Positions 20,865-40,493 are shown, numbered from the stretch's first letter. The stretch: DNA of 64,000 nucleotides from Opitutales bacterium (GCA_965197745.1 CBDANS010000006.1:896001-960000); one strand, 5' to 3'. The notes: a model not told the origin generated them from the letters alone. Numbers and translations: made by a program.

Positions 20865-22182
20865 TGGTCGTGACCACGAAAACTGGTACACTTGAAAAGT
20901 TAGTCTGGGTAACCTAGAAAGGACTCAGACAATGAAAGGCAAAAGATACACAACTGAAGAGAAAATACGGATGCTGCGGCAGGCGGACAAAGGGAAAACG
21001 ATCCTGGAAGCATGCCGCGAGAACAACATTAGCGAACAGACTTTCCACCGCTGGAAGCGTGAGTTTGGGATGATTGATGTCGACCAGGCCAAGCGGATGA
21101 AGGAACTCTTTGAAGGAGAACGCGCGGTTAAAACGGATGCTGGCGGACAAGATGCTGGGGATAGAGATCCTGCAGGAGACCCTCGAAAAAAAACTGTAAG
21201 CCCTGGGCACAAGCGGCAAGTGGCAGAGAGACTTGTGGCTCGGGGCCAGTGTTCGATGCGAGCGGGGTGCCGGTACTTTCGGCTGCACCGTTCCACCTAT
21301 GCGTATAAGGCGAAGCATCCGGATGCTTGGTTAATGAAACTGAAGGCGGCAGTAAGGCGGTTATCACGGCAATATGCCAGGTGGGGCTATCCGAAGATCA
21401 CGAAGCTGTTGAAAGACGAAGGCTGGGAGGTGGGTAAACGTCTCGTGCAAGGTCTACGACGCGAACTGGGCTTGGCGATCCCCCAACGCAAGCCAAGACG
21501 TCGGGGCAGGGGTGTTTCCACCGGGCTGCCGACCAAGGCCGAACATCCCGGCCATGTTTGGACCTGGGATTTTATCCACGATAAGACGGTCCGCGGTGGC
21601 AGTTTAAAAATGTTGACCGTGCTCGATGAGTACACCCGCGAGTGTCGAGTGATCCATGTTGATCGCCATATCAATGCGGAAACGGTGCGCGGTATCATGC
21701 AAAAACTGCTTGCCCGTCATGGGCCGCCACAATATATTCGCAGTGACAACGGTTCCGTTCCGAGGAGCGAAGCGACGACATGCGAAGCCATTCATTGAAA
21801 AGGAATTGAGAGCCTGGCTAACTGCGATGAAAATCAAAACCCTCTATATCGAACCAGGAAGCCCTTGGCAGAACGGATACATTGAATCGTTCCATGCCCG
21901 TTTTCGCGAGGAGTGTTTAAACCGTGAACAGTTATGGACTTTGACCGAAGCCCGCGTGGTCATCGAAGATTGGCGCTGGCTTTACAATCATGTCCGACCC
22001 CACCGCAGCCTCGGCAACATCACTCCACGGCACTTCACTGAAAACCTCAATACCGAAGGCTCGGGCTCCATTCGGGCTACGCCCTCATTGCGCCCAAGCC
22101 TTGACTTCCTCTACCAACTTAACTTCAACATTAACCTCTCCAGACTAACTCTCCCGGTGGACCAGTTTGTGTAACCCGACCA
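20865..22182 (+). mobile_element. IS3-family insertion sequence, inactivated
   Basis: TG...CA ends with imperfect IRs of about 44 bp (TGGTCGTGACCACGAAAACTGGTACAC.. and ..GTGGACCAGTTTGTGTAACCCGACCA). OrfA MKGKRYTTEE from 20932, A8 slippery site 21186-21193, integrase motifs WTWDF, SDNG, PWQNGYIESF. Disrupted by a +1 T and a 32-bp insertion. Confidence 0.92.
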
Positions 22183-24269: not shown

Positions 24270-25620
24270 TGATTGGACCCCGTTTTTCGTACCAATTATT
24301 ATGTGAGAGAGTTACCGGGTATTAATGGTTTTAGGATTGATGTATATGAGAGATCTTGGCGCAGTGAGGGCGTAGCCCGAACGCGGCCAAGAGCGGAAAG
24401 GAATGTGACAAACTCTTGTGGGCTTTTAAAGCCTAATCGACTGTGGGGATGTTCATTGTTATAGGTCTGACGCCATTGTTCTATTAGCACTTGCGCTTCA
24501 GCCACGCTGAGCAACACTTCACGGTTCAAACACTCATCGCGTAAGCGGTTGTGAAACGACTCGATGAAACCGTTTTGCCAGGGACTGCCCGGATCGATAT
24601 ATATCGCCTTGATCTTTTTGTCGGACAACCACTGCTGCACCTGATGAGCAATGAATGGCTTCGCATGTCGTCGCTTCGCTCCTCGGAACACTGCCGTTGT
24701 CACTGCGGATATAGCTAGGAACTCCCTCTTCATCGATGGTTTCGCTGAGTACCGAGAGAACATCGGTTGAGGTGAGCTGTCGAGCTACCCGGATGCGTAA
24801 ACATTTACGCGTATATGTCTTCGCTTCGCTTGAGTGTCGTCGCTTTCAGCTCCTCGGTACATCGATCAAGGTCATCATCTTTAGCATACCGCCATTGTCT
24901 GTACGATCATGGACAAAGTCCCAGGACCAGACGTGATTGCGACCGGTTGCTTTAGTAGGGAGCCCAGTAGAGATCCCCTGACGGTGTCTACGCTTTTTTG
25001 GTGGCTTTACCTGTAAGCCCGAAGAACGTCGCACTGCCTGTACAAATTTCCTGCTTGCCGCCCAACCTTCTTTCACCAGCAAGGCACGAATGCGCCGGTA
25101 ACCGTAACGGGGATGTTCCCAGGACAAGGTCAAAATCCGCTCGGCCAATTGCTGAGCCTTCTTACTGGCCTGCTTGGGTCGGTAGCTGTACGTTGACCAA
25201 CTGAGGCTGAGATAAGCACAAGCCCTCTAAAACGAGCACAGCCCCTTCTCAGCCGCATCTTTTACTGCTCGCTTCTTCTGCTTTGGGCTCACCATTTTTT
25301 TGAGAGCGTTTCCTCCAACACCCGAAGCTTGAGCATTTGATCAGCGAGCATCTTCTTCAGCTCCGTATTCTCCTTTTCCAGCTCTTTAAATCGCTTCGCA
25401 TCAGCCAGCTCCAAGTTGCCATACTTTTTGCCCCAGCGATAGAAGGTCTGTTCACTTAGGTTGTTGCCGTGGCAGACTTCCTGCACGGTTTTGCCCGTAT
25501 CGGGCTGCCGCAGTATTGCTATGATCTGTTCTGTTGTATATCTTTTTCTTTTCATTGAGGTTATCTGTTTATCCCGATAACCTCTCTCTGTTAATGATAC
25601 CATTTTTGGGGGTCACTCCA
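24270..25620 (-). mobile_element. IS3-family insertion sequence, inactivated
   Basis: TG...CA ends (TGATTGGACCCCG.. and ..GGGGGTCACTCCA). OrfA MKRKRYTTEQ 25555-25289 ends at an A7 slippery site, OrfB has WSWDF and PWQNGFIESF. OrfB is broken by 43-bp and 32-bp insertions. Confidence 0.92.
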
Positions 25621-25622
25621 AT

Positions 25623-28016
25623 GCAAAGTCTCCTTCTGAAAATATCTACGATTGGATTGATCAGTGCGCTCATTATTGCCTCAAATTGAATCAGAAAAAT
25701 AAAACAGTACACTATTTTTTATTATCAAATGGTCTCAAAACAGGACTGTTTGTATGGGATCAAGCAAATGCAATACTTGAGCTTGGTTTTGAGGATTTCT
25801 ATTTAGGAGGTGAACTCTATGAGAAACTTAGGAATATTATCTGTGTTGATACGTTTAAAAAAGGACTGGGGGCACCTGATCCAGGTAGAAATATTCTATT
25901 ACGTAAGATTCATAAAGAAGAAGCACAAAAAGTCTTTATAAACTGTCACAAGTATATTTGGAATACCGAGAAAAGGGGCCCACTATCGGCATTTACAGAG
26001 TTCGTAAAGTTGATATTCCTTAAATTGTGGAACGATAGAATTTTGCACGAGAATTTTCGTCCCGATTATTCAGGTAAGTTACTTGTCCCGCAATCTGCTA
26101 ATACTTTCTCAATTTTGTGGATAGAATCCAGAGAGAAAGACCACGGCTCCCCGGTAAACGATATCTCTTTCAAGAACCTGATAACACATATTGAAGACGA
26201 TATAGACAAACGGAATAAAAAGAGAATTTTTGATCAGAATGAACAGATTGAGTTGAAGCCTACAACAATTAAAGGAATTGTAAAAAAACTTGAAAAAATA
26301 GATCTTTACGGAATCGATGAAGATTTAAATGGGAGGTTGTTTGAGACCTTTTTGAATGCGACAATGCGAGGTCAGGCATTGGGGCAATATTTTACACCAC
26401 GAAGCATTGTTTTACTTGCTACCGAATTGGCTGAATTGAGGACAGATTCAAATTATATTGAAAAGGTTTTAGATGGTAGCTGTGGGACAGGTGGATTCTT
26501 GATAGAAGCCATGTCAATTATGAGAAACAATATTCGTGAGAATGATTCTTACTCGATTCAAGAAAAAAAGAAATTAATAGAGGTAATTTGCAATGAAAAG
26601 ATATTTGGAATAGATGCGGCATCCGAGCCAAATCTGGCAAAGATATCAAGGATAAATATGTATCTGCATGGGGATGGAGGCAGCCATATCTATTTTGCGG
26701 ACGGTTTGATAAAAAATATTCAGGTCGATAAAACTGATCCGCGGGAACTACAACGGGAAATTGAGGAAATGAAGCATGAGTTTGGTCCCAGTTCTTTTGA
26801 TGTTGTTTTAACCAATCCCCCTTTCTCAATGTGGTACGAGGAAAAGAATGAGTCTCAAAAACATATACTTGAGCAATACAACCTAACCCAATATAAAACA
26901 AAACCCCCGAGAACACGACTAAGAGGAAGTGCACTTTTTATCGAACGATATTGCGATTTACTACGACCAGGGGGCAAACTGATCACTGTTTTGGATGAAA
27001 CTGTATTATCTTCAGGACAATATTCTTACCTGAGAGATTTCATCCGAGAAAAGTTTATCATTCGAGCTGTGATCTCATTGCATGGTGATGCATTTCAGAT
27101 GGCGAAAGCCAGGGTCAAAACTGCTTTAGTATATTTACAAAAGAAAAAATATCCGGATGATGACCAACCAGCTGCATTTATGTACTCTTCTATTAGATTA
27201 GGTGTAGATGATATGCCAATCACAACTAATCCAGAAAAGGTGAAAAGTGCTCGTGAATTGGCAAGGGAAGAAATCAAAACAATTCTGGAGCTCTATAAAA
27301 GATACAGAAAGGGCGAAAAGGGTGAGTGGTTCGTCCAAACAGCAAACCTGAACGATCGCTTGGACGTTAAGTCATGTGTGGATATGAGAGGCCGGATGAT
27401 TGAACGCTGGGAAAAGGGAAGTTACGAGGTTAGTTCGCTCGGCGAGCTGTTGACACCCCAAAATGATACTGTAATGCCAAAAGATAATCCAAACAAGGAA
27501 TTCAGAATACTCGAAATCACGTACTCGGGCAGGTGTTATATAAAAGAAAAGCGAGCTGGACGAAATATTAACTATAAAAAAATGACGGTAGTACATACTG
27601 GGGACCTGATATTTTCGAGTTATAATACTTTTCAAGGTGCAATGGGTTATGCAACAGAGGAAATTGATGGCGCGGTAGCATCAAATAGTTACATCGTTAC
27701 ACGTGCGAATAATATAGAAGATTCCCTTTATTTATGGTCTATTCTAAGAACAACAGAAATTCGTGCAGAATTTCTTACCTCTGCAATCGGGATGGGTAGG
27801 CAAACAGTAAAATGGGATAAGATTTGCACAGTCCAAGTTCCATTATTGCATCCAAGTCAAAGAGAAGCTATCGGACAGAGAGTAATGGAGCATTGGGAAG
27901 CAGAAAAAAGGGCGAAGGATGGAATAAGCGCGATCTCAAGAGAACTGCACAACAAATTTGATGTTGAGTCTCTAAGTTCACAAAAACGGTTTTTAGGGGC
28001 AAAACCACCCAAATAA
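25623..28016 (+). CDS. Type IIG-like restriction-modification fusion (N6-adenine MTase + TRD), 5'-truncated by IS3
   Basis: GQYFTPR, motif I DGSCGTGGFL, motif IV NPPF and a C-terminal HsdS-like TRD. The frame is open back to the IS end and reads AKSPSENIYDWIDQCAHY...YFLLSNG, an endonuclease-type tail. Confidence 0.8.
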   Translation, partial: AKSPSENIYDWIDQCAHYCLKLNQKNKTVHYFLLSNGLKTGLFVWDQANAILELGFEDFYLGGELYEKLRNIICVDTFKKGLGAPDPGRNILLRKIHKEEAQKVFINCHKYIWNTEKRGPLSAFTEFVKLIFLKLWNDRILHENFRPDYSGKLLVPQSANTFSILWIESREKDHGSPVNDISFKNLITHIEDDIDKRNKKRIFDQNEQIELKPTTIKGIVKKLEKIDLYGIDEDLNGRLFETFLNATMRGQALGQYFTPRSIVLLATELAELRTDSNYIEKVLDGSCGTGGFLIEAMSIMRNNIRENDSYSIQEKKKLIEVICNEKIFGIDAASEPNLAKISRINMYLHGDGGSHIYFADGLIKNIQVDKTDPRELQREIEEMKHEFGPSSFDVVLTNPPFSMWYEEKNESQKHILEQYNLTQYKTKPPRTRLRGSALFIERYCDLLRPGGKLITVLDETVLSSGQYSYLRDFIREKFIIRAVISLHGDAFQMAKARVKTALVYLQKKKYPDDDQPAAFMYSSIRLGVDDMPITTNPEKVKSARELAREEIKTILELYKRYRKGEKGEWFVQTANLNDRLDVKSCVDMRGRMIERWEKGSYEVSSLGELLTPQNDTVMPKDNPNKEFRILEITYSGRCYIKEKRAGRNINYKKMTVVHTGDLIFSSYNTFQGAMGYATEEIDGAVASNSYIVTRANNIEDSLYLWSILRTTEIRAEFLTSAIGMGRQTVKWDKICTVQVPLLHPSQREAIGQRVMEHWEAEKRAKDGISAISRELHNKFDVESLSSQKRFLGAKPPK

Positions 28017-28382: not shown

Positions 28383-29224
28383 ACACGGATTCAAGCGGAT
28401 TAGCAAGTAAAAAGTCCTCAGAAAAGACAGAATTTTTTAGGAATAGACTAACAGCGGATTAAGCGGATGACACGGATTTGAATAAATAATCGAAAAAATG
28501 CGGATCAGTTAATTGTATTCTTTTACTTTCGTTTTAAAGAGACTCCAGGTTATAGATTAACTCTTAAGATGGGAGAAAGAATTACGTGTTTATTAATATT
28601 TATACAATGCCTGCAGATAACGCATATTCAGTATCTAAAACATGATGTCACAATTGATTCACAAGGAGTTGAGTAGAAAGATATTAGGTGCTGCTATGAC
28701 GATTTTGAATGAGTTGAAACCTGGGCTAGATGAACGACTTTACGAAAATGTTTTATATTGATTTAATAGAATCCGGGTCCCAAGTAGAGCAACAAAAGCG
28801 ATTTCATGTGAACTACAAAGGGAAGCACATTGATACTCTAGTCCCTGATTTAATCTTGGATAACACCTTTATCGTAGATACTAAAGTGGTATCCGAGTTT
28901 AATGAAACTCACATCACCCAAATGATTGGCTACCTGGCGATTACAGACTTGAAACTAGCGCTTTTATTGAGTTTTAAAAACATTGAGCTTAATTGGAAAC
29001 GGGTTGTCCGCAGTTAGACTCGGATACTGTGTCTAAATTTAACTGAATATCCGTGATATCCACAGCTCTATCATGTTTCTATTCTGTCCTATCCGTGATA
29101 TCTGAGTCATCCGCGGTCATAACTTTTCCCCTATCTTATTCATAAAAATCTGCGGAATTTCTAAACTATAAATACGCGGTACATCAAATCCTTAATATCC
29201 GCATCATCCGCAATATCCGCGGTT
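28383..29224. repeat. Repeat family D (ACGGAT/GCGGAT units upstream, ATCCGT/ATCCGC units downstream) flanking the GxxExxY gene
   Basis: CACGGATTCAAGCGGAT and GCGGATTAAGCGGATGACACGGAT at 28383-28480, inverted units ATCCGTGATATCC and ATCCGCATCATCCGCAATATCCGCGG at 29048-29224. Confidence 0.65.
28642..29017 (+). pseudogene. GxxExxY family (PD-(D/E)xK-like) protein, frameshifted
   Basis: From ATG 28642: MMSQLIHKELSRKILGAAMTILNELKPGLDERLYEN, then a stop. The remainder (VPDLILDNTFIVDTKVV...QMIGYL) is in another frame, with the shift near 28750. Confidence 0.85.
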
Positions 29225-29228
29225 TATT

Positions 29229-29510
29229 TTAAACAATCTTGACGATCAAGCGGTCGGAATGGGAATCGGAGGCAAGCGTGGATTTCACCTCACTATCAGT
29301 CGGTGAACCGGGGACATTCAAGCCAACTGGAGGAGGACTCAGTGAAGGATCTCTCACTAAAGGGGGCTTGTTATTATAATTCAGCTCCAGCCCTGCAGCC
29401 TCTGAAAAACCGAAAACAGGGGCCAAAAGCTGTCTCTGCTCCAAGGTTTCCATCCAAATCCTGGACGACCTGTTTTTGATAATCCTTTTTCTGCTCTTTT
29501 TATGTGCCAT
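29229..29510 (-). CDS. LEPR-XLL/Planctomycete-extracellular-type leader protein, probably a truncated stub of a larger exoprotein
   Basis: Basic N-terminus then WMETLEQRQLLA, Pro-rich linker, abrupt end at DRLIVKIV next to repeat family D. Confidence 0.65.
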   Translation of the reverse strand: MAHKKSRKRIIKNRSSRIWMETLEQRQLLAPVFGFSEAAGLELNYNNKPPLVRDPSLSPPPVGLNVPGSPTDSEVKSTLASDSHSDRLIVKIV

Positions 29511-29566
29511 TAGATATTAGCTGTTTAATCCTATATTAAGATGGGTCGGATAGTTTATTTATTCCG

Positions 29567-30847
29567 TTAAGACGTTTCGGGATGGTTAAAATTGTTCCTC
29601 GAAGGCGCTTTGGTATCAACAATCAAGCCGGGGCGTTCCCCGGGAGTAAATTCGTTGGCTGCGCGCATGATGAGATGTTCGCCCAGGGAAAGACGGGTGT
29701 TATTGGACCGCGCAAGCAATTCATTCATGCGAAGTTCCACTTTTTCAAGCCAGGTTGGTTCATCCGGCGTTATCTCTTGTTCTTTAACCTCTTCAGAGAG
29801 GGGAGATTCTATGACAAAACTGTAATCCATTTCCAATGGAGTAAACAGATCACCCGCCGTTGAATCATAGTCTATTTCATAAACAGGTTCCCTATTGTCG
29901 GCCACAAGCTGATGGGGAAGCCACACTCCTGAATTATAGAAATTTTCTAAAAAATAAGTATTAAGTGCTTCTTCACTTATACGCTCATCCGCTACCTTCA
30001 GGTTCTCATCTCTTGCCGTTGCACTATCGTCAATAATTTCTGAATCGAACTCATTTAAAGCTGATGGCAGCTCAAATGATTCAGATTCTGTAATATTGGA
30101 ATCCTCAGCAATCGCGTTTGGGTAAGCTATAATATCTTCATGAGAATCCAGATTAGAGCGGTATGATTCAAGTTCTTGAGAATCAAAGACACGGAATTCC
30201 GCAAGGAGAGAATTCACGCCATTCTGGACACTGGGTTCATCACCAAGGAGGCCGAGTTGAGAGTCCTCAAGCCCTATTACAATAAAATCATTGGGCACGA
30301 AATTGGTGCGTACTGTCTGGTCCGGATTCAAACTTAATAACCAGAAGGTGCTTTCAGGATCATTTATTTGCAATTCCAGGCTATCCAGATCGCTATAAAG
30401 AAATGTTTCCGAAAAATCCTCCGCTTCAAAAAAGGTATTGCCCCCCTCGAGAAGCATGAAGGGCGCTGGATCTACAAGGCCCATCACCTCAACATCTTCT
30501 GTAATCAGTGATCTGTGGACAGGAATATCTACATGCAGATTGTCAAGATCGACAGCAAAAAGCCGGTCAATACCACGTGTCCCTACAAGGGAAACGTCGG
30601 TAAATGACGAAGCTGCCACATTTTTAACATTGTTGGGTAAATAATCTACGTTAATGACTAAACTTCCAGTATTATTACCCTTTAAAGTAATCTGCGAGTC
30701 GCTTGGAAACCAGACAAAATCAAACTGAAAATTAGAATCGGTATCCACGGCGGCATCCAGCCAAGGAAATTCCGTTGTCAGCAAAGTCCGGTCTTCGAGC
30801 AGTTCAAGCTGAAGCCCACTACTTATTATGGAGGGTCTCTTTACCAC
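29567..30847 (-). CDS. Acidic protein with N-terminal LEPR-XLL-type leader
   Basis: LQLELLEDRTLLT near the N-terminus, no hydrophobic Sec signal, D/E-rich, GTG start. Confidence 0.7.
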   Translation of the reverse strand: MVKRPSIISSGLQLELLEDRTLLTTEFPWLDAAVDTDSNFQFDFVWFPSDSQITLKGNNTGSLVINVDYLPNNVKNVAASSFTDVSLVGTRGIDRLFAVDLDNLHVDIPVHRSLITEDVEVMGLVDPAPFMLLEGGNTFFEAEDFSETFLYSDLDSLELQINDPESTFWLLSLNPDQTVRTNFVPNDFIVIGLEDSQLGLLGDEPSVQNGVNSLLAEFRVFDSQELESYRSNLDSHEDIIAYPNAIAEDSNITESESFELPSALNEFDSEIIDDSATARDENLKVADERISEEALNTYFLENFYNSGVWLPHQLVADNREPVYEIDYDSTAGDLFTPLEMDYSFVIESPLSEEVKEQEITPDEPTWLEKVELRMNELLARSNNTRLSLGEHLIMRAANEFTPGERPGLIVDTKAPSRNNFNHPETS

Positions 30848-30923
30848 GGGTTACCCTTTTTCAAAATTAAACCAACAGGATAGTTGTTGTTAAGCAATAA
30901 ATCAACCCATTTCCGTGAAATTT

Positions 30924-31748
30924 CTAATTTGTCGTCCCCGTGTCGGTTATTAACAGACGCGCGGCGAGCCCCGCTGAAACAGATTCTGACGGACTGATTT
31001 CCAGTTTCACGCGAAAAGTGCCACTGGAGGGATCGATAAGCGGGTCGACATAGACGACTTCAGCAGTGGCCTGTTCTCCACGTGAGGGTCCATCGAGGAT
31101 TTCTATATTGAGGGTTGTGTTCGCATGTAAAGATCCAAAGAGATGCGATCCGCAATAGACGACAAGCTCTAACCGGGTGTCATCTAGGACGCGGGCCACT
31201 GTTTCCAGCCGTTCCACTGATTCACCTACAGACTTATATTTTTTTAGGAAAATACCCGCGATAGGTGATTTAATCTTCTTTTTTTCGAGGCGGATTTGAG
31301 TGGTTTCCAGTGTAGCCTGGGCTTGTTTGTATTGGCTTTCCGCTTTCGCTAGAAGGTATACGGATTCTTCGTACTCTCTTTCACTCTGGATATTATCATT
31401 GTAGAGCTTTTCTGCTCGTTCCATGTCTTTGCGTGCTTTTTCCAACTCTGCCACGGCTCCATCCAATATAGCCTCTGATTGATTAACCGCTGCTTCTTCT
31501 TCCCGTGCATCCAATTCCAAAATGACTTCCCCTGAGATTACCCGCTGTCCTTCCTCTACACGATACGATTTAATAATACCCGCGGAAGCCGCACTAAGCT
31601 TAATATCTTCGCGCGGTAACAAAACCGAACGCAAGGAACCCCGATAAGCCCCTGGCTCAAGGAGGTAGGTCGATGAAGAGGGTAACTGGCCCACCGCTAA
31701 TAGCGATGGGATGAGAAATAGGATAATGAGTGCGACAGCTCTTATCAT
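30924..31748 (-). CDS. Membrane fusion protein / periplasmic adaptor (HlyD/RND family)
   Basis: Signal peptide, lipoyl halves VEEGQRV and IKSPIAG around a coiled coil, VDPLIDPSSGTFRV. Confidence 0.88.
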   Translation of the reverse strand: MIRAVALIILFLIPSLLAVGQLPSSSTYLLEPGAYRGSLRSVLLPREDIKLSAASAGIIKSYRVEEGQRVISGEVILELDAREEEAAVNQSEAILDGAVAELEKARKDMERAEKLYNDNIQSEREYEESVYLLAKAESQYKQAQATLETTQIRLEKKKIKSPIAGIFLKKYKSVGESVERLETVARVLDDTRLELVVYCGSHLFGSLHANTTLNIEILDGPSRGEQATAEVVYVDPLIDPSSGTFRVKLEISPSESVSAGLAARLLITDTGTTN

Positions 31749-31753
31749 AAATT

Positions 31754-31880
31754 GGAGGGAGTCAGTGCCTGTCGGCCATAGCCCATCGGGCGAAGGTTGA
31801 TTGCGTCCGGAATAAATTAAATAAATAATTAACCCATTTTTAATGTATCACCAAGTGGCCACGACGGAGCGTCGCCCTCC
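31754..31880. repeat. Repeat family A with nested CCTGTC..CATAG element (31768-31800)
   Basis: GGAGGGAGTCAGTG[CCTGTCGGCCATAGCCCATCGGGCGAAGGTTGA]TTGCGTCCG ... GGCCACGACGGAGCGTCGCCCTCC. Confidence 0.75.
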
Positions 31881-31895
31881 AGAAAATAACACCCA

Positions 31896-34097
31896 TCAGA
31901 ACCAATGGATTCTTAAAAAGTGGACCACGTCCCGGAACATAATATAGGCCAGGGGTCGTCTACCAATAATAAATGCGGCATTGCCAGTATAGCCCATTTT
32001 TAAATGCTCGGTGTCGTTAGTTTCATCCATGGGTAAGACCACGGAAAAAGAATAATCTCCACTGCCCGTTTCCAATCCATAGGCTAATTGGTCGGTATGG
32101 TTGAGCTCCAAAGTGTATGTCTTGGTGAGATCAGCATTAAATTTTACTTCGGATGCGATCGCGTCATACTTATGCATGAACCGCTCGAGAAATACTAAAT
32201 CCTTTTCTCGAACATCAATTTTCACTTCCCAGCTGCCGGGCTTGGCCATTTCTACAACGGGTTCTCCCACCTTGAGAACATTACCCACACGCAATTGGAG
32301 GTTCGGAGGGCCAATGACAATTCCGGTGAAAGGCGCGCGGACTTCCGCTTGAGAAATTTCAAAGCGGAGTTTATCAATCAATGCCGCTGATTTACGGGCG
32401 TTGAGCTGAGAAACCTGCATCTGCGTTTCATCGCCCATGTTGCGCGCCATATCAGATTCCGCCATGTAGCGCTGATATTCCTGCTGCGCCTGGTGTAATT
32501 GCATTTCAAGGTCGCGTGTTTCAAGAAGAGCGAGAAGGTCACCCTCATTTACGGTTTGGCCTTCTCTTACTAATACTTTATCCAGTCGGGCTGAAACCAT
32601 GGTGGGCAGGGACTGAAAATTAGTAGGCCTAAGAAAAGTATCCCCTCTGATTTTGAATTTAAAAGGAAGGCAAAGGACCAACAAGACCAGGGCAATGGGT
32701 ATGCCTACTTTAAGCATGAGCTTGCGCTTATCCGTTTTGACGTAACGTGTTTTGAGGCTCGCAATTTCCTTAATCACACGGAAAGAGCGTCGTTTATTCC
32801 AGTAAAGTGAGGTTCCCAGGGAACGGCCGCCGGAATACGCCAGATCCCGCATATGTAAAAAGGTGCTTTTTGCTTTCTCCGCATTATCTCGCCCTTCAAA
32901 GAGCAGAATACCGCAAATAATACCCTCTCGATCAAAAAGGGGTAGGGAGGTGGCCCAATTCATGGGGATTGAATCAAAATAATGATTGATTGCCTCGGGA
33001 CGTGAGGCTGTTTTTTCCGGATCACGATTGGTAAAGGTGAGGTGAAATCGTGGCCGATCTCCGGAAGGTAGCGTATGGGATGGGTTTTCAGGAACTTTCT
33101 GTTTTTCTTTTGACAGGTCCTTTGAACCGGTAGAACGCATTACCGTTTCCTCTTTTTCACTCGACTTAGCTGATGGCTCCACGATCTGTGGCGTTACCGT
33201 GGAAATGGCATCTGACCCCTTATGTTCTTGTATCGCCACCGTGTCACTTAAAGTAAATTGTGCCAGTTCTCTCACCAGGTCCTTTAGAATTTCCGCCTGT
33301 TCACTGCGGGCATGAGGCCGCTTCAATCCACTACAGGCTAAAATTTCAAAATCCAGGCTGAGGCCATTTTGCCTTGGAAAATCTTTTACATGGAAGATAG
33401 AAACCCGCTCACAATCTACAGTCTCCCGAGCAAAATTTACGATGTTCCAGGCGACTGAATCCAAATCTATATCACCGGCCAAGTCTTCCAAGAGGTGTGA
33501 ATAGGTATTTACCCGGGTGATCTCCTGGGTGAGATCGGTAGCTCGACGACTACGCAAATAAAGGACAATTTCCTCACAAAAATGCTTAAGTAAAAGCAAG
33601 CGTGTTTTTGTCGTTTCATTATTAACGGGTTTAAACCAGGCATGTAATACACCGGCAACTTTTGACTCCATGGGTATGGGAATAAAAAATTGTTCAAATG
33701 GCGTATCGTTAAAAAGGGTGATTCGCTCGGTGGTTACCGCGGTATCAATGGCCAGATTGTCGCTCCCTTCCCGTGGACGAGAACTTGGTTGAAAAACTAT
33801 GGGCTTCTTCCCCACTGCCACTTCCTGGACGGCTTTGCGGAAAGACTCATCCTGTGCCGGGTTATCCTCAAGCTTTAACTGTTTCAGATTAACAGAAAAG
33901 AGCCGCTTGAATGTAGATCCGCTCAGAATTTCATAAGTTACCCCTTGTGGCTTGAGTGCTTGATTCAACAGATTGGCGTGTGCGCGAAGATAGGCTGCCA
34001 AATCAGGAGGGTTTTTTGCCAGTTGGGCCAGTTGTGCTGAAATGTTTGCAACAACCTGTTGGACTTGTGAACTTGCTACGTTAGGGTGGGTCTCCAT
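31896..34097 (-). CDS. GAF-like-domain HlyD-family membrane fusion protein
   Basis: Large cytoplasmic N-region with GAF-type strands (FIPIPMESKVAGVL, SLPLFDREGIICGILLFE), one TM (IPIALVLLVLCLPF), then VLVREGQTVNEGDLLA, coiled coil and VRAPFTGIV. Confidence 0.8.
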   Translation of the reverse strand: METHPNVASSQVQQVVANISAQLAQLAKNPPDLAAYLRAHANLLNQALKPQGVTYEILSGSTFKRLFSVNLKQLKLEDNPAQDESFRKAVQEVAVGKKPIVFQPSSRPREGSDNLAIDTAVTTERITLFNDTPFEQFFIPIPMESKVAGVLHAWFKPVNNETTKTRLLLLKHFCEEIVLYLRSRRATDLTQEITRVNTYSHLLEDLAGDIDLDSVAWNIVNFARETVDCERVSIFHVKDFPRQNGLSLDFEILACSGLKRPHARSEQAEILKDLVRELAQFTLSDTVAIQEHKGSDAISTVTPQIVEPSAKSSEKEETVMRSTGSKDLSKEKQKVPENPSHTLPSGDRPRFHLTFTNRDPEKTASRPEAINHYFDSIPMNWATSLPLFDREGIICGILLFEGRDNAEKAKSTFLHMRDLAYSGGRSLGTSLYWNKRRSFRVIKEIASLKTRYVKTDKRKLMLKVGIPIALVLLVLCLPFKFKIRGDTFLRPTNFQSLPTMVSARLDKVLVREGQTVNEGDLLALLETRDLEMQLHQAQQEYQRYMAESDMARNMGDETQMQVSQLNARKSAALIDKLRFEISQAEVRAPFTGIVIGPPNLQLRVGNVLKVGEPVVEMAKPGSWEVKIDVREKDLVFLERFMHKYDAIASEVKFNADLTKTYTLELNHTDQLAYGLETGSGDYSFSVVLPMDETNDTEHLKMGYTGNAAFIIGRRPLAYIMFRDVVHFLRIHWF

Positions 34098-34213
34098 GGA
34101 TAATTATGAGGTGAACAATACATAAAAATCAGGTGAAAGCGAAGCCAAAATGCATGATAAACAAGGATAAAATAAATATTGCATTATAAAGGGAGATTTA
34201 TTCCTTGTAGGGA

Positions 34214-35593
34214 ATGCGCTGTATTAACACACCTCCTATTCTCAACGCCTTGGAAGAAAAAATTATCGAGCTCGTCACTGAAGATGTCAAACATGTGGGG
34301 ATTGTTGGTGTGGGGGATGGCAGGCTGGCAAGAGGTATGCAGGAAAAGTGTGGAAATAAAGTTAAATTAAGTCTGATTGAACCACAAGCAAAACTTCATC
34401 GTTATCTCGACGACTTTAAAAACCTCGGTAGCGACCCCTGGGATCTCAGTTGGTACGAGAAAAGGGTGAAGGCAAATGGGGCCTTTGATATTCTCATCTT
34501 TTACCAGATTCACAATTTTTGGGAAGGCAACTTAGCCCCCCTCTACAGTATTTTAAAGATGATTAGTGATGGGGGCCATGGTTGGATCACTTTTCTTAAT
34601 GGTCTATCCCGCCGGGCTCTGGAACATTTTCTACCCCCAAAAATTGCCACTTACGCACGATTGATGCATCCCATCCGTTTTGCTTCTATTACCGATTACG
34701 CTTCATGGAGTTCCTATCTGGTAACAATTAAAGCTCAATTAGACGCTGTTTGGGGTCTTCTCGATAAAGATGCATTTGATCTATGTCAGGGGAAAAAATT
34801 ACCCCCAGTAGAGAACCCGCTCACTTGGGAAATGCATGGCCTCAAATTAAATGTAAAGACCTTTGCCGACGCTTATCTGTGGGGTGCTTCATTTATCGGT
34901 CTTAAGTTTCATTTAAATAAAAAAGGGGATAATGCTATCGGCACACCACAGTTTTCTGGCACTTCCTTTTCCCCTCCACTATTTCAGGCTCTTCTTAATC
35001 CTTATCCTGAAATAAGCTCTGAAAGTGAAGAATCGTTTTCCATAAAAACTGAAGTGGAAGCCTGGAATGAACAACCAGAAAATAAGCTAAACCCACTGGG
35101 TGAATTTGTTCTCCAGCAGATTGATAATCCGAATGAAATTAAAAAAGTTCTAATCCTGGGTGCCAGTTGGGGAAAACATTTGATTCTCTTTAGAAAAACC
35201 AAACCTGAGTGGGAATTCACAGGAATAGAGAACGCACCATTTAAAGTAGAGGCCTCTAAAATGTTAACGGGCGATGAAGCTCCTGGTATCCAGCTTTTTA
35301 ATCCTGAGGATCCACTTCCTTTTCAAGACCAGGCATTCGACATCACTCTGTCTCTGGGTTACTTTTCCAAAATACATTCTCCTTTGGCGAAAATTATAGC
35401 ACCAGAACTACTGCGAGTGACTCGAGGGAAAATCTATCACTTGGAAGACGCTCGTGGCCCGGAGTTCTCCCTGAGTCTTACCCGATATTCTTTAAACGCT
35501 ATCTATGAGGAACTTGGCCATAAATCGACAACGCAACCCGTTCTTCTGAAAGAGACCCAAACGGGCCTCTACTTGCTAAAAGTGTCGCGATGA
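34214..35593 (+). CDS. Protein with two degenerate class I SAM-methyltransferase-like domains
   Basis: VGIVGVGDGRLA...FDIL in the N-half, VLILGASWG...LPFQDQAFDITLS...ELLRV in the C-half. Confidence 0.6.
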   Translation: MRCINTPPILNALEEKIIELVTEDVKHVGIVGVGDGRLARGMQEKCGNKVKLSLIEPQAKLHRYLDDFKNLGSDPWDLSWYEKRVKANGAFDILIFYQIHNFWEGNLAPLYSILKMISDGGHGWITFLNGLSRRALEHFLPPKIATYARLMHPIRFASITDYASWSSYLVTIKAQLDAVWGLLDKDAFDLCQGKKLPPVENPLTWEMHGLKLNVKTFADAYLWGASFIGLKFHLNKKGDNAIGTPQFSGTSFSPPLFQALLNPYPEISSESEESFSIKTEVEAWNEQPENKLNPLGEFVLQQIDNPNEIKKVLILGASWGKHLILFRKTKPEWEFTGIENAPFKVEASKMLTGDEAPGIQLFNPEDPLPFQDQAFDITLSLGYFSKIHSPLAKIIAPELLRVTRGKIYHLEDARGPEFSLSLTRYSLNAIYEELGHKSTTQPVLLKETQTGLYLLKVSR

Positions 35594-35677
35594 GTATAGC
35601 CTGAGTGCTTTATTAAAATTTTAATCTCTCAGGGAAAGCCTGACTGCACTCGGATTGTTTAAACCATTTTTAAAAAA

Positions 35678-37069
35678 TTGCATAGATTGAGATCACCTAT
35701 ATTTTTTTTCTGCCTGTTATGCCTGAGTTCTCCTCTCTCTGTGGTGAAACTCGCAGGAAACAAGGAGAGTGTCGAATCGGCTGATTCCGCACGCGAACTC
35801 AATGCTGTTTGGACGGTTTCTGATGCTATAGAACGCGCGTTGTCAGTTAACCCGGCCATACAACGGGCCGACGCCTTAAAGGACCGGCAAAAAGGATTAA
35901 AGGTGCAAGTCAGATCGGATTTACTCCCGACTATGCGACTTATAGGATCGGCGAATGGAAGAGATGAAGGGCTCATCGATCGCAACCCGGATGAGCTGTC
36001 TCAAGTACCCAGCGAACAAACGGCGATCACTCAAGATGCCTATTCAGGTTCTATAGAGTTTCGGCAAATCGTATTTGATGGATTAAAGCGTTGGAACCGA
36101 TATCGCCAGGAAACCCTTACATACAAAGGGGCGGAGGCTACTTCAGAAGATACAAAAAGGGAAATTATATCTTATGTTAAGCAGGCATTTGATCAACTTT
36201 TATTTACCATTTCGGTAGTCGATATTCGGAAAGAAACGGTCGCAACATTTAGAACAGTTCTGGAAATAGCGCAGAAAAAGAAAATAGCGGGTGAAGTTAC
36301 TTCTTACGAAATCCTGAGAGTGCGGACAGAATTACAGAGTGCAGTAGCCGAGCTTGCTGAATCAGAATCCAATTTGATCAGAGCAGAGCAGATTTTTCGC
36401 CGTTTGCTGGTTTTACCCCAACCGGTAGATCCCCATAGCGATCGGGTAAAACTGGCGGGTAAACTGGTGGAACCCATTTTTGATCTTTCCTTTGGAAAAG
36501 CGCTGGGCTTAGCTTTAGAGAATCGTGGGGACCTTCAAGCGGCACGATATCAGTGGGAAGCGGCAAAAAAAGGATTAAATGCCGCTCACGGGGAGTGGCT
36601 TCCGATGGTTGAGGTATATGCAAATTACTCGTTAAGATCCTCTTATTTTGATGAAAATAAAAATCTGGACGGATGGACCATCGGGGCTGTAGGGCAATGG
36701 AATATTTTTGATGGGTTCCAACGATCAGGGATCATAGCAACGCAGAAAGCAGAGGCAAGGGAAGCGCAGATTGGTTACCTGGAGTTGGAATATAGTATTA
36801 CCTCGCATATTCAGGAACTTTATGCTCAAATTGCACAATCCCGTTCAGTCATTAACTTCCATCGAACATCTATGGATCTAGGTAATGAAAGCCTACATCA
36901 GGCAGAACGCCTCTATGAAGTCGGACAAGTTGGCCTGGAAGAAGTTTTCTACGCACAGATTACCCTGCGCCGTTCCCAGATTAACTTATCTCGGGCTTTA
37001 TTTCAATATAACACCTTTCTTTCCCAAGTTGAGTATGCCATTGCTACACCTCTTAATGGGAATAATTAG
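35678..37069 (+). CDS. TolC-family outer membrane channel
   Basis: Signal peptide, AIERALSVNP, SDLLP, Q.VFDG, ALENRGDL, WNIFDG, LYEVG; duplicated OEP organisation. Confidence 0.9.
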   Translation: MHRLRSPIFFFCLLCLSSPLSVVKLAGNKESVESADSARELNAVWTVSDAIERALSVNPAIQRADALKDRQKGLKVQVRSDLLPTMRLIGSANGRDEGLIDRNPDELSQVPSEQTAITQDAYSGSIEFRQIVFDGLKRWNRYRQETLTYKGAEATSEDTKREIISYVKQAFDQLLFTISVVDIRKETVATFRTVLEIAQKKKIAGEVTSYEILRVRTELQSAVAELAESESNLIRAEQIFRRLLVLPQPVDPHSDRVKLAGKLVEPIFDLSFGKALGLALENRGDLQAARYQWEAAKKGLNAAHGEWLPMVEVYANYSLRSSYFDENKNLDGWTIGAVGQWNIFDGFQRSGIIATQKAEAREAQIGYLELEYSITSHIQELYAQIAQSRSVINFHRTSMDLGNESLHQAERLYEVGQVGLEEVFYAQITLRRSQINLSRALFQYNTFLSQVEYAIATPLNGNN

Positions 37070-37078
37070 CATTAACCC

Positions 37079-39337
37079 ATGAACACTTCAACGCTCCCCG
37101 TGGAAACGGGACATTTTGATCCCGATAAAGAAATTGCCGACTTGGAGCGAATGGTTCCATCGCGGTTAAGAGCTGACCTTGTTATCCAAAAACAGTTTTT
37201 TAAGAACGAGGAGTATTTTGTGGTCAAGGACCCCCTCGCGTTGACTTATTTTCGTCTGCGTCCCGAAACGGCCTTTATCATCAATTTACTTGATGGAAAG
37301 AAAAATTTAAAAACGATAACCGATGAATTCTCTCAGCAGTACCCCAATAGCACTCTTGGCTTGAAAGATATAGCTGCCTTTACGCAACAGTTGGGTATGG
37401 GAGGGCTTCTTAACATCAGCGCTCGTCGTTTTGTCGATTATGCCCGTCATAAACCTCAACAGGCCAACAGCCTTATTCGTCTATGGATGTTGGCCATGCA
37501 AAAACTGATCTTTTTAAAAGTTCCGCTTATTGATCCCAGTCCCTGGTTGGGTAAATTAACGGCTAAAATTACTTTTTTTTGGTCCCGCTGGTTCATATGG
37601 GGGTGCCTCGGATTTTTCGTATGGACAATATTCTGGCTCATCGTCAACCGGGAGGCCTTTTCGCACAATGATATAAACTTTTTATCCCCTGCTAACCTCT
37701 TTATTATGTGGCTTTCGATTATTTTTGTTAAGATTTTCCATGAGTTTGGGCATGCCACGACTTGCCGTTATTTCGGTGGGGAAGTGCATGAAATGGGTGT
37801 CTGTTTAATCTGTTTTACCCCCTGTGGGTACGTCGATGCCTCAGATGCCTATATGATGAAGCATAAGCGGCATAAAATTTATACCACTTTAGCGGGTGTT
37901 TTTACTGAATTTGTCATCGCCTCCCTCTGCGCCCATGCCTGGCTCTATCTCTCGCCCGGTCTGCTAAAAAACATTGCTTTTAATATCATGTTCGTCGCCA
38001 GTATTAACACGATTTTTTTTAATATGAATCCGCTGATGCGTTTTGATGGCTATTATGTGATCAGTGACTTACTGGAAATACCCAATTTGCGAACAAAATC
38101 CATTACTTACTGTTCCTACCGCCTTCAGCAGTTTTTCTTTGGTATCCGCAATACTTTTCAGGAACGCATGTTCGATATTCATACTGACAGTCGGGTATTT
38201 CTTATTTATGCGATCAGCGCTTTCCTCTACATGGCCTTCATTATTTACTCTCTCAGCCAGATATTTGCCCACGTTCTTGCCCCTTACGGCCTGGGTGAAT
38301 TTGGGTTGGGACTGGGGGTGTTTGCCCAGATTTCCTTCATCGGGTTTCCCGTCGCAAAACTGCTGACTGATGCTTTTAATCCGGAAGCTGCGCCTCATAT
38401 TATAAAAATTGCGTCGACGAAACGCCGCCTCATTACAATTGGTGTTGCCCTGTTAACGATCATTCTTGTCATCGCCTTCCTCCCCAGTCGCTATAATATC
38501 GACCGTCAGGGTGTTGTGCGTTATGCCCAGAGCGAAATTATTGCCACTAAAACTGGTGGGCTCGTCGAGAAAATTTTCGTCAAAACCGGTGATTGGATAG
38601 AAGCGGGCGCAATTATAGCAATGTTGAACAACCCGTCTCTGGAAGCGGAACTAGCGATCACGCAAACAGATTTCGAATTGGCAAAATTGCAATATGGTGC
38701 TCTGCAAAATGAACGCTCTTGGGATACAGCCAGACATATGGCAGAAGCTGCTGCTGCTTTGGAAATGGCGGAGACTCATTATCGGAGGGTCCGTGAAGAA
38801 GCCGAAGCATTGGAGCTAAAAGCGACCATCTCTGGATATGTGCTTTCTTCCGATGTCCACCGCTTAGCGGGGAAATACATTGCTCCTGAAGAGGCTTTAA
38901 TGCGGATTGGCACACGCGATAATTTACGCCTTATTCTCCCTCTTACAGAAAGTGAAATTCAACTTATCGAACCGGGAAGTAAAGTTCGGGGTCGTTGGAA
39001 TACCGACGCTGAAAAATTTGAAACGGCTATAGATGTCTTTCCGCGTCAAAGAGCGTCGTTGGAAAATTACATGTTTGCGATGTATACAGCTTTTGGCGGA
39101 CCCGCTCCGCGGGAACAGTTTAAAGGACAAAGCTCACAAAATGGTTCAGGTTCGAACGATCCCCTGTTTTCCCTTTTTCTTGCTGAAGCCCCGCTTGTAG
39201 ATCATTTAAAAAATTATCAGGTTTTTGAAGGTATGCGTGTGCAGGCCACTATCCTCGGCAAAAAAACCACCTTGGGCAAAAAAATCTGGCGCAGTGTCGT
39301 TTCATTTTGGGATAATAACATGCGGTCTATTCGTTAA
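37079..39337 (+). CDS. PqqD/RRE-like domain + M50 site-2 protease + HlyD adaptor fusion
   Basis: N-terminal VVKDP...YFRL...LLDGKK wHTH pattern, HEFGH zinc motif, NMNPLMRFDGY, several TMs, VKTGDWIEAG...LKATISG adaptor. Confidence 0.85.
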   Translation: MNTSTLPVETGHFDPDKEIADLERMVPSRLRADLVIQKQFFKNEEYFVVKDPLALTYFRLRPETAFIINLLDGKKNLKTITDEFSQQYPNSTLGLKDIAAFTQQLGMGGLLNISARRFVDYARHKPQQANSLIRLWMLAMQKLIFLKVPLIDPSPWLGKLTAKITFFWSRWFIWGCLGFFVWTIFWLIVNREAFSHNDINFLSPANLFIMWLSIIFVKIFHEFGHATTCRYFGGEVHEMGVCLICFTPCGYVDASDAYMMKHKRHKIYTTLAGVFTEFVIASLCAHAWLYLSPGLLKNIAFNIMFVASINTIFFNMNPLMRFDGYYVISDLLEIPNLRTKSITYCSYRLQQFFFGIRNTFQERMFDIHTDSRVFLIYAISAFLYMAFIIYSLSQIFAHVLAPYGLGEFGLGLGVFAQISFIGFPVAKLLTDAFNPEAAPHIIKIASTKRRLITIGVALLTIILVIAFLPSRYNIDRQGVVRYAQSEIIATKTGGLVEKIFVKTGDWIEAGAIIAMLNNPSLEAELAITQTDFELAKLQYGALQNERSWDTARHMAEAAAALEMAETHYRRVREEAEALELKATISGYVLSSDVHRLAGKYIAPEEALMRIGTRDNLRLILPLTESEIQLIEPGSKVRGRWNTDAEKFETAIDVFPRQRASLENYMFAMYTAFGGPAPREQFKGQSSQNGSGSNDPLFSLFLAEAPLVDHLKNYQVFEGMRVQATILGKKTTLGKKIWRSVVSFWDNNMRSIR

Positions 39338-39362
39338 ACCAGGATACCCTATTTTGTCCGGT

Positions 39363-40448
39363 ATGGTGCCATCAAAACTTACGGATTGTCTCCTCAACCT
39401 TTCTTACCAGCGTACGCTTACCGGGTTTGAACAAGCGCTAAAGGAGGTGATGGATATATTTGATTTAACCGCTTGGGCCTGTCTATTCCCGCCCAGTTTT
39501 AACGCTGGGGGCAACAATTTGATCATCGCCAAAGGCATCAGGGAAAATAGTTCGCTCCCGAATCAACAATCCCTTTTTAGACTTACTCAGTATGGGATTA
39601 ATCGACAGACGGAAGCGCTACTCAAATCACTGGGACGCGAACTCTCTCCAACAAAAACAGCCCATATTCAGATAATTCCCCTTCGCCGTAAAGGTAAAGC
39701 GCTCTTCATTCTTTTCCTCTTTAGGGATGGAAATCCTTTTACCAATGAAGAGATCACACTTGCCAATAATGTCGGGAAACATCTCGACCGGTGTTTTGTC
39801 CTCTTATCCCAAGAACAGGAACAGGAATTCGTAGTAGGTTTTTTTCGGCTTGTCAGTAACCTATACGCTGAAGGGCTATGCCTGCTCGACACCAATAAAC
39901 AGCTTAATTACGATAATACTCATTTTAGAGAACACCTTTATATCTGGGAACATGGACGTGAAGCGGTTAAAAATCATAACCTCCCACGCCAGATTAAACT
40001 GCCGCTCGATTGGGAAGAAGCCTGTGATGAAGCCATTAAAATATACCAAACTAGCACCTTCCCCCAAGTCTCTTCCAGAATGGCAATTACCCAGGGGCCT
40101 CTCGTACGATTAGAGATACCCATAACAAGCACTGAATATTTAGAGGGAGCGGTGCGCTATCTTGCTTTTAAAAGTTCCCTCGGGGTTAGGCCCTACCTCC
40201 TGCTCACGACAAACCTGCAAAAACGCCTGATTAGAAAATCTGCTTCCTTTGCGGAGTTCGCAAAAAAAATAGAACTTTCCAAGCGTGAAAAGGAAGTAGG
40301 TGATCTGATCATGGAAGGGTATTCTGCTTCTCGCATCGCCGATACCTTGGGTATTTCTCTGACCACCATAAAAACACACATTCGGCATATTCTACGCAAA
40401 ACCGGCGTGCGCAACCGCTTGGAATTCATCAGCATCTGCAGTAAGTAA
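39363..40448 (+). CDS. LuxR-family transcriptional regulator with large N-terminal sensor region
   Basis: C-terminal LSKREKEV...GYSASRIADTLGISLTTIKTHIRHILRKTGVRNR. Start set at ATG 39363 to avoid overlap with the upstream gene. Confidence 0.85.
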   Translation: MVPSKLTDCLLNLSYQRTLTGFEQALKEVMDIFDLTAWACLFPPSFNAGGNNLIIAKGIRENSSLPNQQSLFRLTQYGINRQTEALLKSLGRELSPTKTAHIQIIPLRRKGKALFILFLFRDGNPFTNEEITLANNVGKHLDRCFVLLSQEQEQEFVVGFFRLVSNLYAEGLCLLDTNKQLNYDNTHFREHLYIWEHGREAVKNHNLPRQIKLPLDWEEACDEAIKIYQTSTFPQVSSRMAITQGPLVRLEIPITSTEYLEGAVRYLAFKSSLGVRPYLLLTTNLQKRLIRKSASFAEFAKKIELSKREKEVGDLIMEGYSASRIADTLGISLTTIKTHIRHILRKTGVRNRLEFISICSK

Positions 40449-40493
40449 AGGTTGTTGAATAGCTGATTGTTGATTGAATTAAATAAATCATTT

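Follow-up and report, generated by a model that had tools for sequence, protein, structure and literature searches.

What would a TolC-type locus export, and what could drive that export, when the locus encodes no pump? We studied this question in a 64,000-nt stretch of DNA from Opitutales bacterium (GCA_965197745.1, CBDANS010000006.1:896001-960000). The whole stretch is referred to here as the window, and positions are counted within it; the genome to which it belongs comprises 4.45 Mb and is 92% complete. An earlier note on this DNA described two divergent gene runs encoding adaptors, a TolC protein, a protease-adaptor fusion, a methyltransferase-like protein, a LuxR-type regulator and two short-motif proteins. 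All eight open reading frames (ORFs) were present as described, four leftward (-) and four rightward (+), with intergenic gaps of 9 to 147 bp, and the interpretation given in that note found support in part. Our analysis suggests, with moderate confidence, that the locus encodes a dedicated envelope-spanning apparatus for the processing and export of neighbouring leader-tagged proteins, and that it belongs to a motor-less branch of a wider module. Its probable substrates, to be trimmed and exported, are the two tagged proteins of the same locus. The features of the locus, with protein lengths in amino acids (aa), are as follows.

29229..29510 (-): 93-aa protein with a basic N-terminus and an LExRxLL-type leader at about residues 20-30; candidate cargo or precursor, from ORF and motif
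29567..30847 (-): 426-aa protein with an LExRxLL-type leader at residues 14-24 and a beta-helix-like part at about residues 31-205; candidate cargo, from ORF, motif and model
30924..31748 (-): short membrane fusion protein (MFP) adaptor, 274 aa, with an N-terminal signal or anchor; TIGR01730 RND_mfp
31896..34097 (-): long adaptor, 733 aa, with a tandem GAF-like part (1-455), a transmembrane segment (TM, 460-478) and a HlyD-type C-terminal domain; profiles and AlphaFold model
34098..34213 (no strand): divergent intergenic spacer of 116 bp, from gene coordinates; presumed site of the promoters for both gene runs
34214..35593 (+): tandem class-I methyltransferase-like protein, 459 aa; weak match at 312-404
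35678..37069 (+): TolC-family outer-membrane factor (OMF); OEP PF02321, 157.7 bits in two stretches
37079..39337 (+): fusion of a PqqD-like RiPP recognition element (RRE; RiPP, peptide made on ribosomes and then modified post-translationally), M50 protease, TM and HlyD adaptor, 752 aa; Pfam and NCBIfam profiles
39363..40448 (+): LuxR/GerE-type regulator; GerE, 52 bits

The fusion gene is present in a single copy in the window's genome. Its product scored above the cut-off for Peptidase_M50 (34.2 bits, cut-off 27.2) and for HlyD_D23 (49.6 bits), as expected from the earlier description of a PqqD-like/M50/HlyD fusion. The Pfam PqqD model remained under its cut-off (19.8 bits, cut-off 23.4), and the RRE was recognized through the best NCBIfam model, the daptide RRE-intramembrane protease NF041824 (residues 42-405, E 7e-47; 160.3 bits, under the curated cut-off of 300). 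The other close curated model for the N-terminal part was NF058609 (YydH/LiaK), also a RiPP leader peptidase. On profile evidence, the N-terminal 400 residues are judged homologous to RRE-fused intramembrane leader peptidases. The predicted layout is RRE (about 40-130), M50 (about 170-430), TM (451-469) and periplasmic HlyD adaptor (470-752, with the barrel-sandwich domain at 474-641); at least five strongly hydrophobic segments lie between residues 171 and 469, before the periplasmic part. The catalytic motifs HExxH (at 221) and NxxPxxxxDG (at 315) are present, and across the fusion family, in all clades, they were found in 40/40 and 37/40 members, respectively.

The nearest public records are two Opitutales/Opitutaceae metagenome-assembled genomes (loci L001 and L002), both of which keep the whole gene order. 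The L001 fusion is 86% identical to that of the window, and its locus is collinear over window positions 29171-40450 (11.3 kb, 80.6% nucleotide identity); the L002 fusion is 55% identical. The fusion family is large: of 7,999 candidates scored, at least 3,915 reached E<=1e-10, mostly proteins named in databases as "putative peptide zinc metalloprotease", "efflux RND transporter periplasmic adaptor subunit" or "PqqD family peptide modification chaperone". Of 401 sampled Verrucomicrobiota genomes, 90 gave a match at E<=1e-20, nearly all in frames of about 700-750 aa.

Related loci were compared in a set of 42 (40 fetched neighbourhoods, L001 and L002), in which neighbours within 8 kb were clustered. 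The greedy ORF caller returned no fusion in three of them (L013, L020 and L033) and split giant genes of high G+C content; counts of leader, SecA and ABC genes were taken on six-frame stop-to-stop ORFs. MFP genes were found in 31 of the 39 loci with a called fusion; as a rule there was a short one (about 260-300 aa) and a long one (450-740 aa). OEP/TolC-type genes were found in 13 + 6 loci, and LuxR-type genes in the four nearest loci (L001, L002, L005, L006). The conserved core is a short MFP, a long adaptor and the fusion, and a TolC-type gene frequently accompanies them.

A maximum-likelihood tree was computed for 40 fusion proteins (quick IQ-TREE run with Shimodaira-Hasegawa-like approximate likelihood-ratio support; the same three loci absent). 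All ten SecA-adjacent rows, together with two from a genome with extra SecA_DEAD matches, formed a SecA-linked clade (support 99). Its sister is the clade of the window, with ten rows (window, L001, L002 and L005-L011). A third clade holds 18 rows, almost all from genomes with one SecA_DEAD match. The additions specific to clades are the tandem-GAF adaptor, the LuxR-type regulator and the tandem methyltransferase-like gene. By sequence comparison, the window locus represents a variant with small cargo and no SecA paralogue, and the module to which it belongs is known from comparative genomics only.

Proteins with an LExRxL(L/F) leader were detected in 25 of the 42 fusion neighbourhoods and in all three clades, which bears out the co-occurrence of LExRxLL proteins with the M50-HlyD gene proposed in the earlier note. 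The leader consists of a mostly basic stretch, the pattern hydrophobic-x-hydrophobic-Glu-x-Leu-Glu-x-Arg-x-Leu-Leu/Phe and a following run of Ala, Gly or Ser; motif matches in L011 and L039 were judged to be chance because no small residues follow them. The leader proteins are of 91-163 aa (window, L001, L007, L008; the 426-aa protein of the window aside), of about 270-1,500 aa, or giants with stop-to-stop frames of 2,964-7,788 aa; within the third clade they span 269 to about 5,400 aa and were found in 10 of 18 loci. Nine loci were extended, chosen (not blindly) because a giant ORF ran off the fetched piece: giants were present in seven, one giant start was not reached, and one locus held only a 1,191-aa frame with the motif. 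The loose motif was found at ORF N-termini 15 times in the 4.45 Mb of the window's genome, 13 of them outside the locus, and 31 times in 1.0 Mb of neighbourhood DNA. The LEPR-XLL model NF012209 exceeded its 17-bit cut-off in 5 of 21 N-termini tested, all from large or giant proteins of the SecA-linked clade; with 24 positions, this model is not specific at 17 bits in six-frame DNA. The tie between the machine and its candidate cargo is well supported by comparative evidence. As to gene arrangement, the giant leader gene of SecA-linked loci lies downstream of the SecA-like gene, with its start no more than about 200 bp away (L041:1-6513, -; L042, L014, L015 and L018). A 1,026-aa ORF about 6 kb from the module in another locus (L021:16897-19977) has an N-terminus resembling, by eye, the RuvC-I start of a Cas9-type protein.

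Both candidate cargo proteins of the window carry LExRxLL within their first 30 residues, as had been claimed. The strict word occurs four times in all ORFs of at least 60 aa in the genome, and the motif is taken to be more than chance because two of the four are the locus proteins. A position matrix was trained on 19 leaders from other genomes, and when it was run across 1.85 million genome positions the 93-aa protein ranked first (15.4 bits). Among the best 14 of 28 matches, only two others lie near a frame start, namely the 426-aa protein and a 7.6-bit match situated in a signal-peptide-like segment. By this matrix, no N-terminus in the genome other than those of the two locus proteins is taken to bear such a leader.

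The 426-aa protein belongs to a family encoded directly after the short MFP gene in the window, L001, L002, L005 and L006. Its members have in common the leader, the N-terminal domain and a conserved C-terminal motif; the middle of the window protein is acidic and disordered. The structural model has a predicted local distance difference test (pLDDT) score of 52 overall and of 80-90 over residues 30-200. Its VIA matches are right-handed beta-helices found in pectate lyases, in adhesins and in the S-layer protein RsaA (best match 5gzt_B, Z 11.2, rmsd 3.8, 151 aligned), and Foldseek gave no match in the PDB at E<=0.001. The modelled domain is beta-helix-like, of a kind seen in surface proteins. 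Scans of both cargo candidates against Pfam and NCBIfam gave no domain, including no RTX; C-terminal signals are not modelled in these libraries.

The first 40 or so residues of the 93-aa protein resemble the leaders of proteins of about 1000 aa in L005 and L006. When the latter were used as tblastn queries against the window, the leader was matched and nothing beyond it. A further leader protein of the 1000-aa type lies at the fetched edge of L001. The leader proteins of L001, L005 and L006 share a domain of about 230 aa with a family in the window's own genome (92 high-scoring segment pairs on contigs C6 and C7). This family consists of proteins of about 370-870 aa in which the domain is mostly C-terminal, and the first 22 listed members start with hydrophobic, Sec-signal-like segments (by eye); an extracytoplasmic destination of the leader proteins is therefore indicated.

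How could such proteins be moved? The proposed mechanism has four steps. The cytoplasmic PqqD-like RRE of the fusion would bind the N-terminal leader of the 426-aa and 93-aa proteins, and the adjoining M50 zinc protease would cut the leader off at the inner membrane. The HlyD domains of the fusion, the tandem-GAF adaptor and the short adaptor would form a mixed periplasmic sleeve that docks to the TolC-type channel, through which the cargo would leave. Control might be exerted via the tandem GAF region and the LuxR-type regulator, and the tandem methyltransferase-like protein may modify the cargo. We infer leader binding, cleavage, the export route and the stoichiometry of the adaptors. The first step was modelled as a complex between residues 1-440 of the fusion (30-row alignment) and residues 1-60 of the 426-aa family (5 rows), with three controls. 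The predicted complex scored 0.56 (best control, 0.00), and its runs agreed in at least 53% of contacts, with a partner pLDDT of 40-44. Of 157 solved complexes, 116 attained the mark set for this score, as did 2 of 215 mismatches; with a score of 0.60 or under, only 18 of the 157 solved complexes attained it, along with both of the passing mismatches. The prediction lends weak support to recognition of the leader of the 426-aa protein by the RRE/M50 part of the fusion.

The tandem GAF region and the regulator also lend themselves to a different explanation, in which the locus would be a signalling and efflux unit: the M50 protease would perform regulated intramembrane proteolysis, the GAF region would sense, the LuxR-type protein would respond, TolC would expel a small molecule, and the leader proteins would be mere neighbours. 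The classical role of M50 site-2 proteases is in signalling, and the locus does contain GAF and LuxR-type domains. A regulatory role for the GAF protein has been suggested in a study of related gene groupings (Kamneva et al., 2015; PMC4452313). However, leader proteins accompany the fusion in three deep clades although the remaining neighbours vary, and no anti-sigma or sigma gene recurs among the clustered neighbours. The RRE-type domain is, moreover, a peptide-binding module according to passages of the daptide preprint (10.1101/2023.03.08.531785). We give the signalling explanation very little credence.

The GAF assignment itself was made by modelled fold. The 733-aa protein matches HlyD_3/Biotin_lipoyl_2 in its C-terminal region, and Pfam GAF reached only E=0.21. 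An AlphaFold model of residues 1-470 (pLDDT 67.6) contains two alpha/beta modules joined by long helices, and with this model Foldseek recovered, at E 8e-8 to 1e-5, the tandem GAF domains of a cyanobacterial adenylyl cyclase and of PDE6, PDE5 and PDE2 (for example, PDE6 8ulg_B, 7.7e-8; PDE5 3lfv_B, 5e-7; 1ykd_B, 2e-6). Pfam GAF was above its cut-off in the long adaptors of most SecA-clade loci and L011; it was below it in those of the window clade (L011 excepted) and in the 450-470-aa adaptors of the third clade. The orientation is read as a cytoplasmic GAF-like part and a periplasmic HlyD part. The short adaptor scored 136.8 bits with TIGR01730 RND_mfp (cut-off 94.9), and its hydrophobic stretch covers residues 1-19. 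The TolC-type protein matched TIGR01844 under its cut-off (E 1.6e-31), and it is one of about nine OEP-family genes in the genome (17 half-domain matches). The regulator, of which the N-terminal 290 or so residues have no assigned domain, has a listed ORF start at 39225; because of comparison with relatives, its start is probably at 39363. Its orthologues follow the fusion gene in L001, L002, L005 and L006.

A second alternative takes the curated RiPP leader-peptidase models closest to the N-terminal part of the fusion, NF041824 and NF058609, at face value. The locus would then be a RiPP-like pathway, in which a small leader product is modified by the methyltransferase-like protein and trimmed by the RRE-M50 part, and the adaptors and TolC expel it; the 426-aa protein would be accessory. 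The tandem methyltransferase-like label was weak in the window and holds because orthologues match methyltransferase models, in both halves in L001 and with 53 bits in L002, as the earlier note would have it. This gene heads the operon, which suits a modification pathway, but it was found only in the window, L001 and L002 and is absent from L005 and L006. Within the window clade, L007 (2002-5020) and L008 (16027-19131) contain two tandem small leader genes (114-163 aa) with short internal repeats. These adjoin a radical-SAM/SPASM gene and a gene for a 295-aa protein, upstream of the adaptor-fusion genes, an arrangement that amounts to a RiPP-like form of the module. The majority of the neighbours with a leader are large or giant, however, no daptide-type modifying enzymes are found among the locus genes, and the 93-aa protein (91 aa in L001) has no relatives past L001 and no repeated core. 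For the window locus, a RiPP-like pathway appears quite improbable.

In the vicinity of the locus, a protein-lysine-methyltransferase-like gene (MethyTransf_Reg and PKMT_2nd; window 45212-46789, -) lies a few kb away, and similar genes lie near the loci of relatives (L001:15015-16589, L002:15826-17394, L005:872-2509), in L005 directly after the leader protein of about 1000 aa. This protein may methylate the cargo. On the left side, the locus is flanked by pieces of IS3-type transposases, by an N6 DNA methylase resembling Eco57I and by a PD-(D/E)XK gene shortened to 95 aa from the 130 aa of L001; these elements together occupy window positions 20932-22174, 24299-24763, 25686-28016 and 28730-29017. 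Synteny with L001 breaks at 29171, just left of the 93-aa gene. The left flank may be mobile DNA inserted at the place of a larger leader-bearing gene in relatives.

Returning to export of the tagged proteins, the next question is that of the energy source. The earlier note had claimed that the locus lacks Walker A motifs, ABC signatures and RND pumps, and our scans agree: none of the eight proteins has a Walker A motif, a single signature-like SGG string has no Walker A beside it, and no ABC (ABC_tran/ABC_membrane) or RND domain was found among 46 ORFs scanned across the window. The only MFS gene in the window (49264-50436) belongs to a sugar-acid cluster about 9 kb from the locus. Across the 42 related loci, no ABC, RND or MFS gene recurs, and homologous loci do not consistently include an ABC or RND transporter. 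ABC ATPase domains were found in 10 of the 42 loci: one case is a peptidase-containing (PCAT)-like exporter and three are of the Wzt type, and the rest are of unrelated types, namely an ABC-F protein, an Opp/Dpp-type ATPase, two MacB/Lol-like ATPases and one small ATPase. The absence of a conventional pump at the locus is well supported by comparative evidence.

A different kind of motor was found in the sister clade. The gene of about 670 aa located directly after the fusion in 10 loci encodes a truncated SecA (three members scanned), with SecA_DEAD, the preprotein cross-linking domain and the SecA P-loop by Pfam, and by the six-frame search 13 of 42 loci have a SecA-like ATPase gene next to the fusion. 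The term "ABC-less" used in the earlier note thus stands for the locus and the window, and the family as a whole is not always motor-less. The window's own genome has one SecA_DEAD match, a 997-aa open frame that is the canonical SecA. One match each was also found in the L001 genome (listed as a complete chromosome), the L002 genome, G108 and G189; because the five genomes examined in its clade each show one match, the window is regarded as a motor-less variant. In a hand tally of the 90 fusion-bearing genomes, 35 had at least two SecA_DEAD matches and 55 had one, compared with 21 of 311 fusion-less genomes having at least two; matches are not copy numbers.

These data bear on an alternative in which the same apparatus is not self-sufficient: an unlinked SecA/SecYEG or ABC exporter would drive the inner-membrane step, and "ABC-less" would describe linkage only. 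The presence of a dedicated SecA-like ATPase beside the fusion in the sister clade suggests that a SecA-type motor fits the machine. Apart from its canonical SecA, the genome encodes five or six ABC_membrane-type exporters, and a distant locus has a C39-peptidase ABC exporter with HlyD directly upstream. On the other hand, around the 29 loci without the SecA-like gene neither ABC nor SecA genes recur, and the leaders have no long Sec-type hydrophobic core (by eye). Wzm/Wzt, the polysaccharide-type ABC-2 transporter near some relatives' loci, was considered as a hidden energiser and rejected, its orthologues lying about 585 kb from the locus in the window's genome. An unlinked motor is possible, though we would not call it probable. 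One of the ABC exporters mentioned, a 767-aa protein (C6:1044368-1046671; L055:625-2928), is encoded about 85 kb past the right end of the window; it has an N-terminal extension of about 190 residues with no assigned domain, and no MFP gene was found within its 1.5-kb flanks.

The opposite alternative is that the adaptor triad, of which the RRE-M50 fusion is the only polytopic member, and TolC form a complete secretion system of a new type with no dedicated ATPase. We know of no described TolC-dependent system that works without an ABC, RND or MFS partner, and we consider a complete system of this kind unlikely. If it existed, it would move proteins of folded to giant size out of the cell, powered by the proton-motive force, by folding of the cargo outside or by coupling to leader cleavage, and the SecA-like motor of the sister clade would be an add-on rather than a core component.

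Several results weigh against a dedicated, motor-less export apparatus for the two tagged proteins. Profile scans revealed no ATPase or known transporter domain in the locus proteins, and M50 proteases are not known to conduct proteins. Wzm/Wzt genes lie near the loci of three of the four closest relatives (L002, L005, L006), and in L044/L061 a C39-peptidase (PCAT-like) ABC exporter and HlyD are encoded directly upstream of the module on the same strand; an ABC partner therefore remains conceivable. In the latter case (L061:6161-10071 with L044:2508-11296) the order is ABC, HlyD, OEP, a 970-aa leader protein, two MFP genes and the fusion. The predicted complex is weakly supported, and it is uncertain how the partner itself folds. 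No leader ORF was found in the DNA fetched for 17 of 42 neighbourhoods, extensions having been made for the nine chosen loci only. The window's two proteins missed the cut-offs of both curated leader models, LEPR-XLL and Planc_extracel: neither matched NF012209 at E<=1, and PF07595 (Planc_extracel) matched the 93-aa protein only, at E 0.014 and 15.5 bits (cut-off 25.5). With the leader matrix, the 426-aa protein ranked only 11th (8.5 bits). Finally, the 93-aa gene may be a remnant of a larger cargo gene, since only its leader resembles the relatives of about 1000 aa and mobile DNA adjoins it. The L044/L061 run is preceded by an ORF of more than 1,900 aa, and it is the only locus of the 42 in which a classical type I secretion system (T1SS) core was found with the module.

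The earlier note knew of no mechanistic description, but the grouping is already in the literature: its SecA-bearing form was published by Kamneva, Poudel and Ward (2015, PLoS One; PMC4452313). In that paper, M50-like/HlyD, GAF/HlyD, HlyD and sometimes OEP genes are described around secondary SecA_DEAD genes in several phyla, including Verrucomicrobia; the lack of an ABC transporter is noted, the part of the ATPase is proposed for SecA_DEAD, and the M50 protein is put forward as a possible pore. The description is computational and makes no link to cargo. The text does not mention LEPR, PqqD/RRE, giant neighbours or any substrate, and the supplementary tables may list SecA-less loci. Literature searches on M50, HlyD and PqqD, or on SecA, HlyD, site-2 protease and TolC, returned no paper, and one on SecA_DEAD and HlyD returned only the 2015 study. 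The passage found on LEPR-XLL only names the motif on giant proteins. Passages of two preprints on giant genes of Omnitrophota report neighbours resembling a type II secretion system and SecA domains within proteins, and not the M50-HlyD module. A secretion route for proteins with LEPR-type tags was not described in the literature searched.

The fusion family is widespread and tied to proteins with LEPR-type tags, some of which are among the largest bacterial proteins, and its SecA-less clades sharpen the question of what powers and conducts translocation. With the small cargo candidates of the window (93 and 426 aa), tests would be much easier to carry out than with the giants. Should tag and machine be confirmed, surface and secreted proteins could be predicted in bacteria of the PVC (Planctomycetes-Verrucomicrobia-Chlamydiae) group, and the tag might become a new export tag for biotechnology.

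How does the locus compare with known systems? Type I secretion employs an ABC transporter, an MFP (HlyD) and an OMF (TolC), and in PCATs the ABC transporter contains a peptidase. The locus resembles these systems in its TolC-type duct, its HlyD-type adaptors and the cargo encoded next door, and the proposed logic is that of PCATs, in which an N-terminal leader is recognized and cut by a domain fused to the inner-membrane component. In contrast, the locus has no ABC transporter and encodes three adaptor-domain proteins instead of one. The protease is a putative RRE-guided M50 metalloprotease rather than a C39 cysteine protease, and library scans detected no RTX or C-terminal signal domain in the window cargo. 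The locus differs from RND and MFS tripartite efflux pumps in that no RND or MFS transporter is encoded with its MFP and OMF genes.

In the daptide peptidases MpaP/DapP and in YydH/LiaK, as in the fusion, a PqqD-like RRE at the N-terminus precedes an M50 membrane protease with HExxH. Passages of the daptide preprint describe an intramembrane site-2 protease that carries an RRE at its N-terminal end and cleaves off the leader (10.1101/2023.03.08.531785). The window fusion adds a C-terminal TM and a periplasmic HlyD adaptor of about 280 aa, and it misses the NF041824 cut-off (160 vs 300 bits). Its neighbours are adaptors, TolC and large proteins, and none of the daptide tailoring genes listed in those passages (aminotransferase, alcohol dehydrogenase-type decarboxylase, DUF-RRE) is found among the locus genes.

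The closest likeness is to the module of Kamneva et al. (2015). Both have a polytopic M50-HlyD protein, GAF with HlyD, a third HlyD protein, sometimes OEP, and no ABC transporter; the GAF here rests on a modelled fold, and both are known from sequence comparison. They differ in that the secondary (truncated) SecA_DEAD gene is missing here and in the genomes of the four nearest relatives, and the window fusion is placed in the sister clade of the SecA-linked clade.

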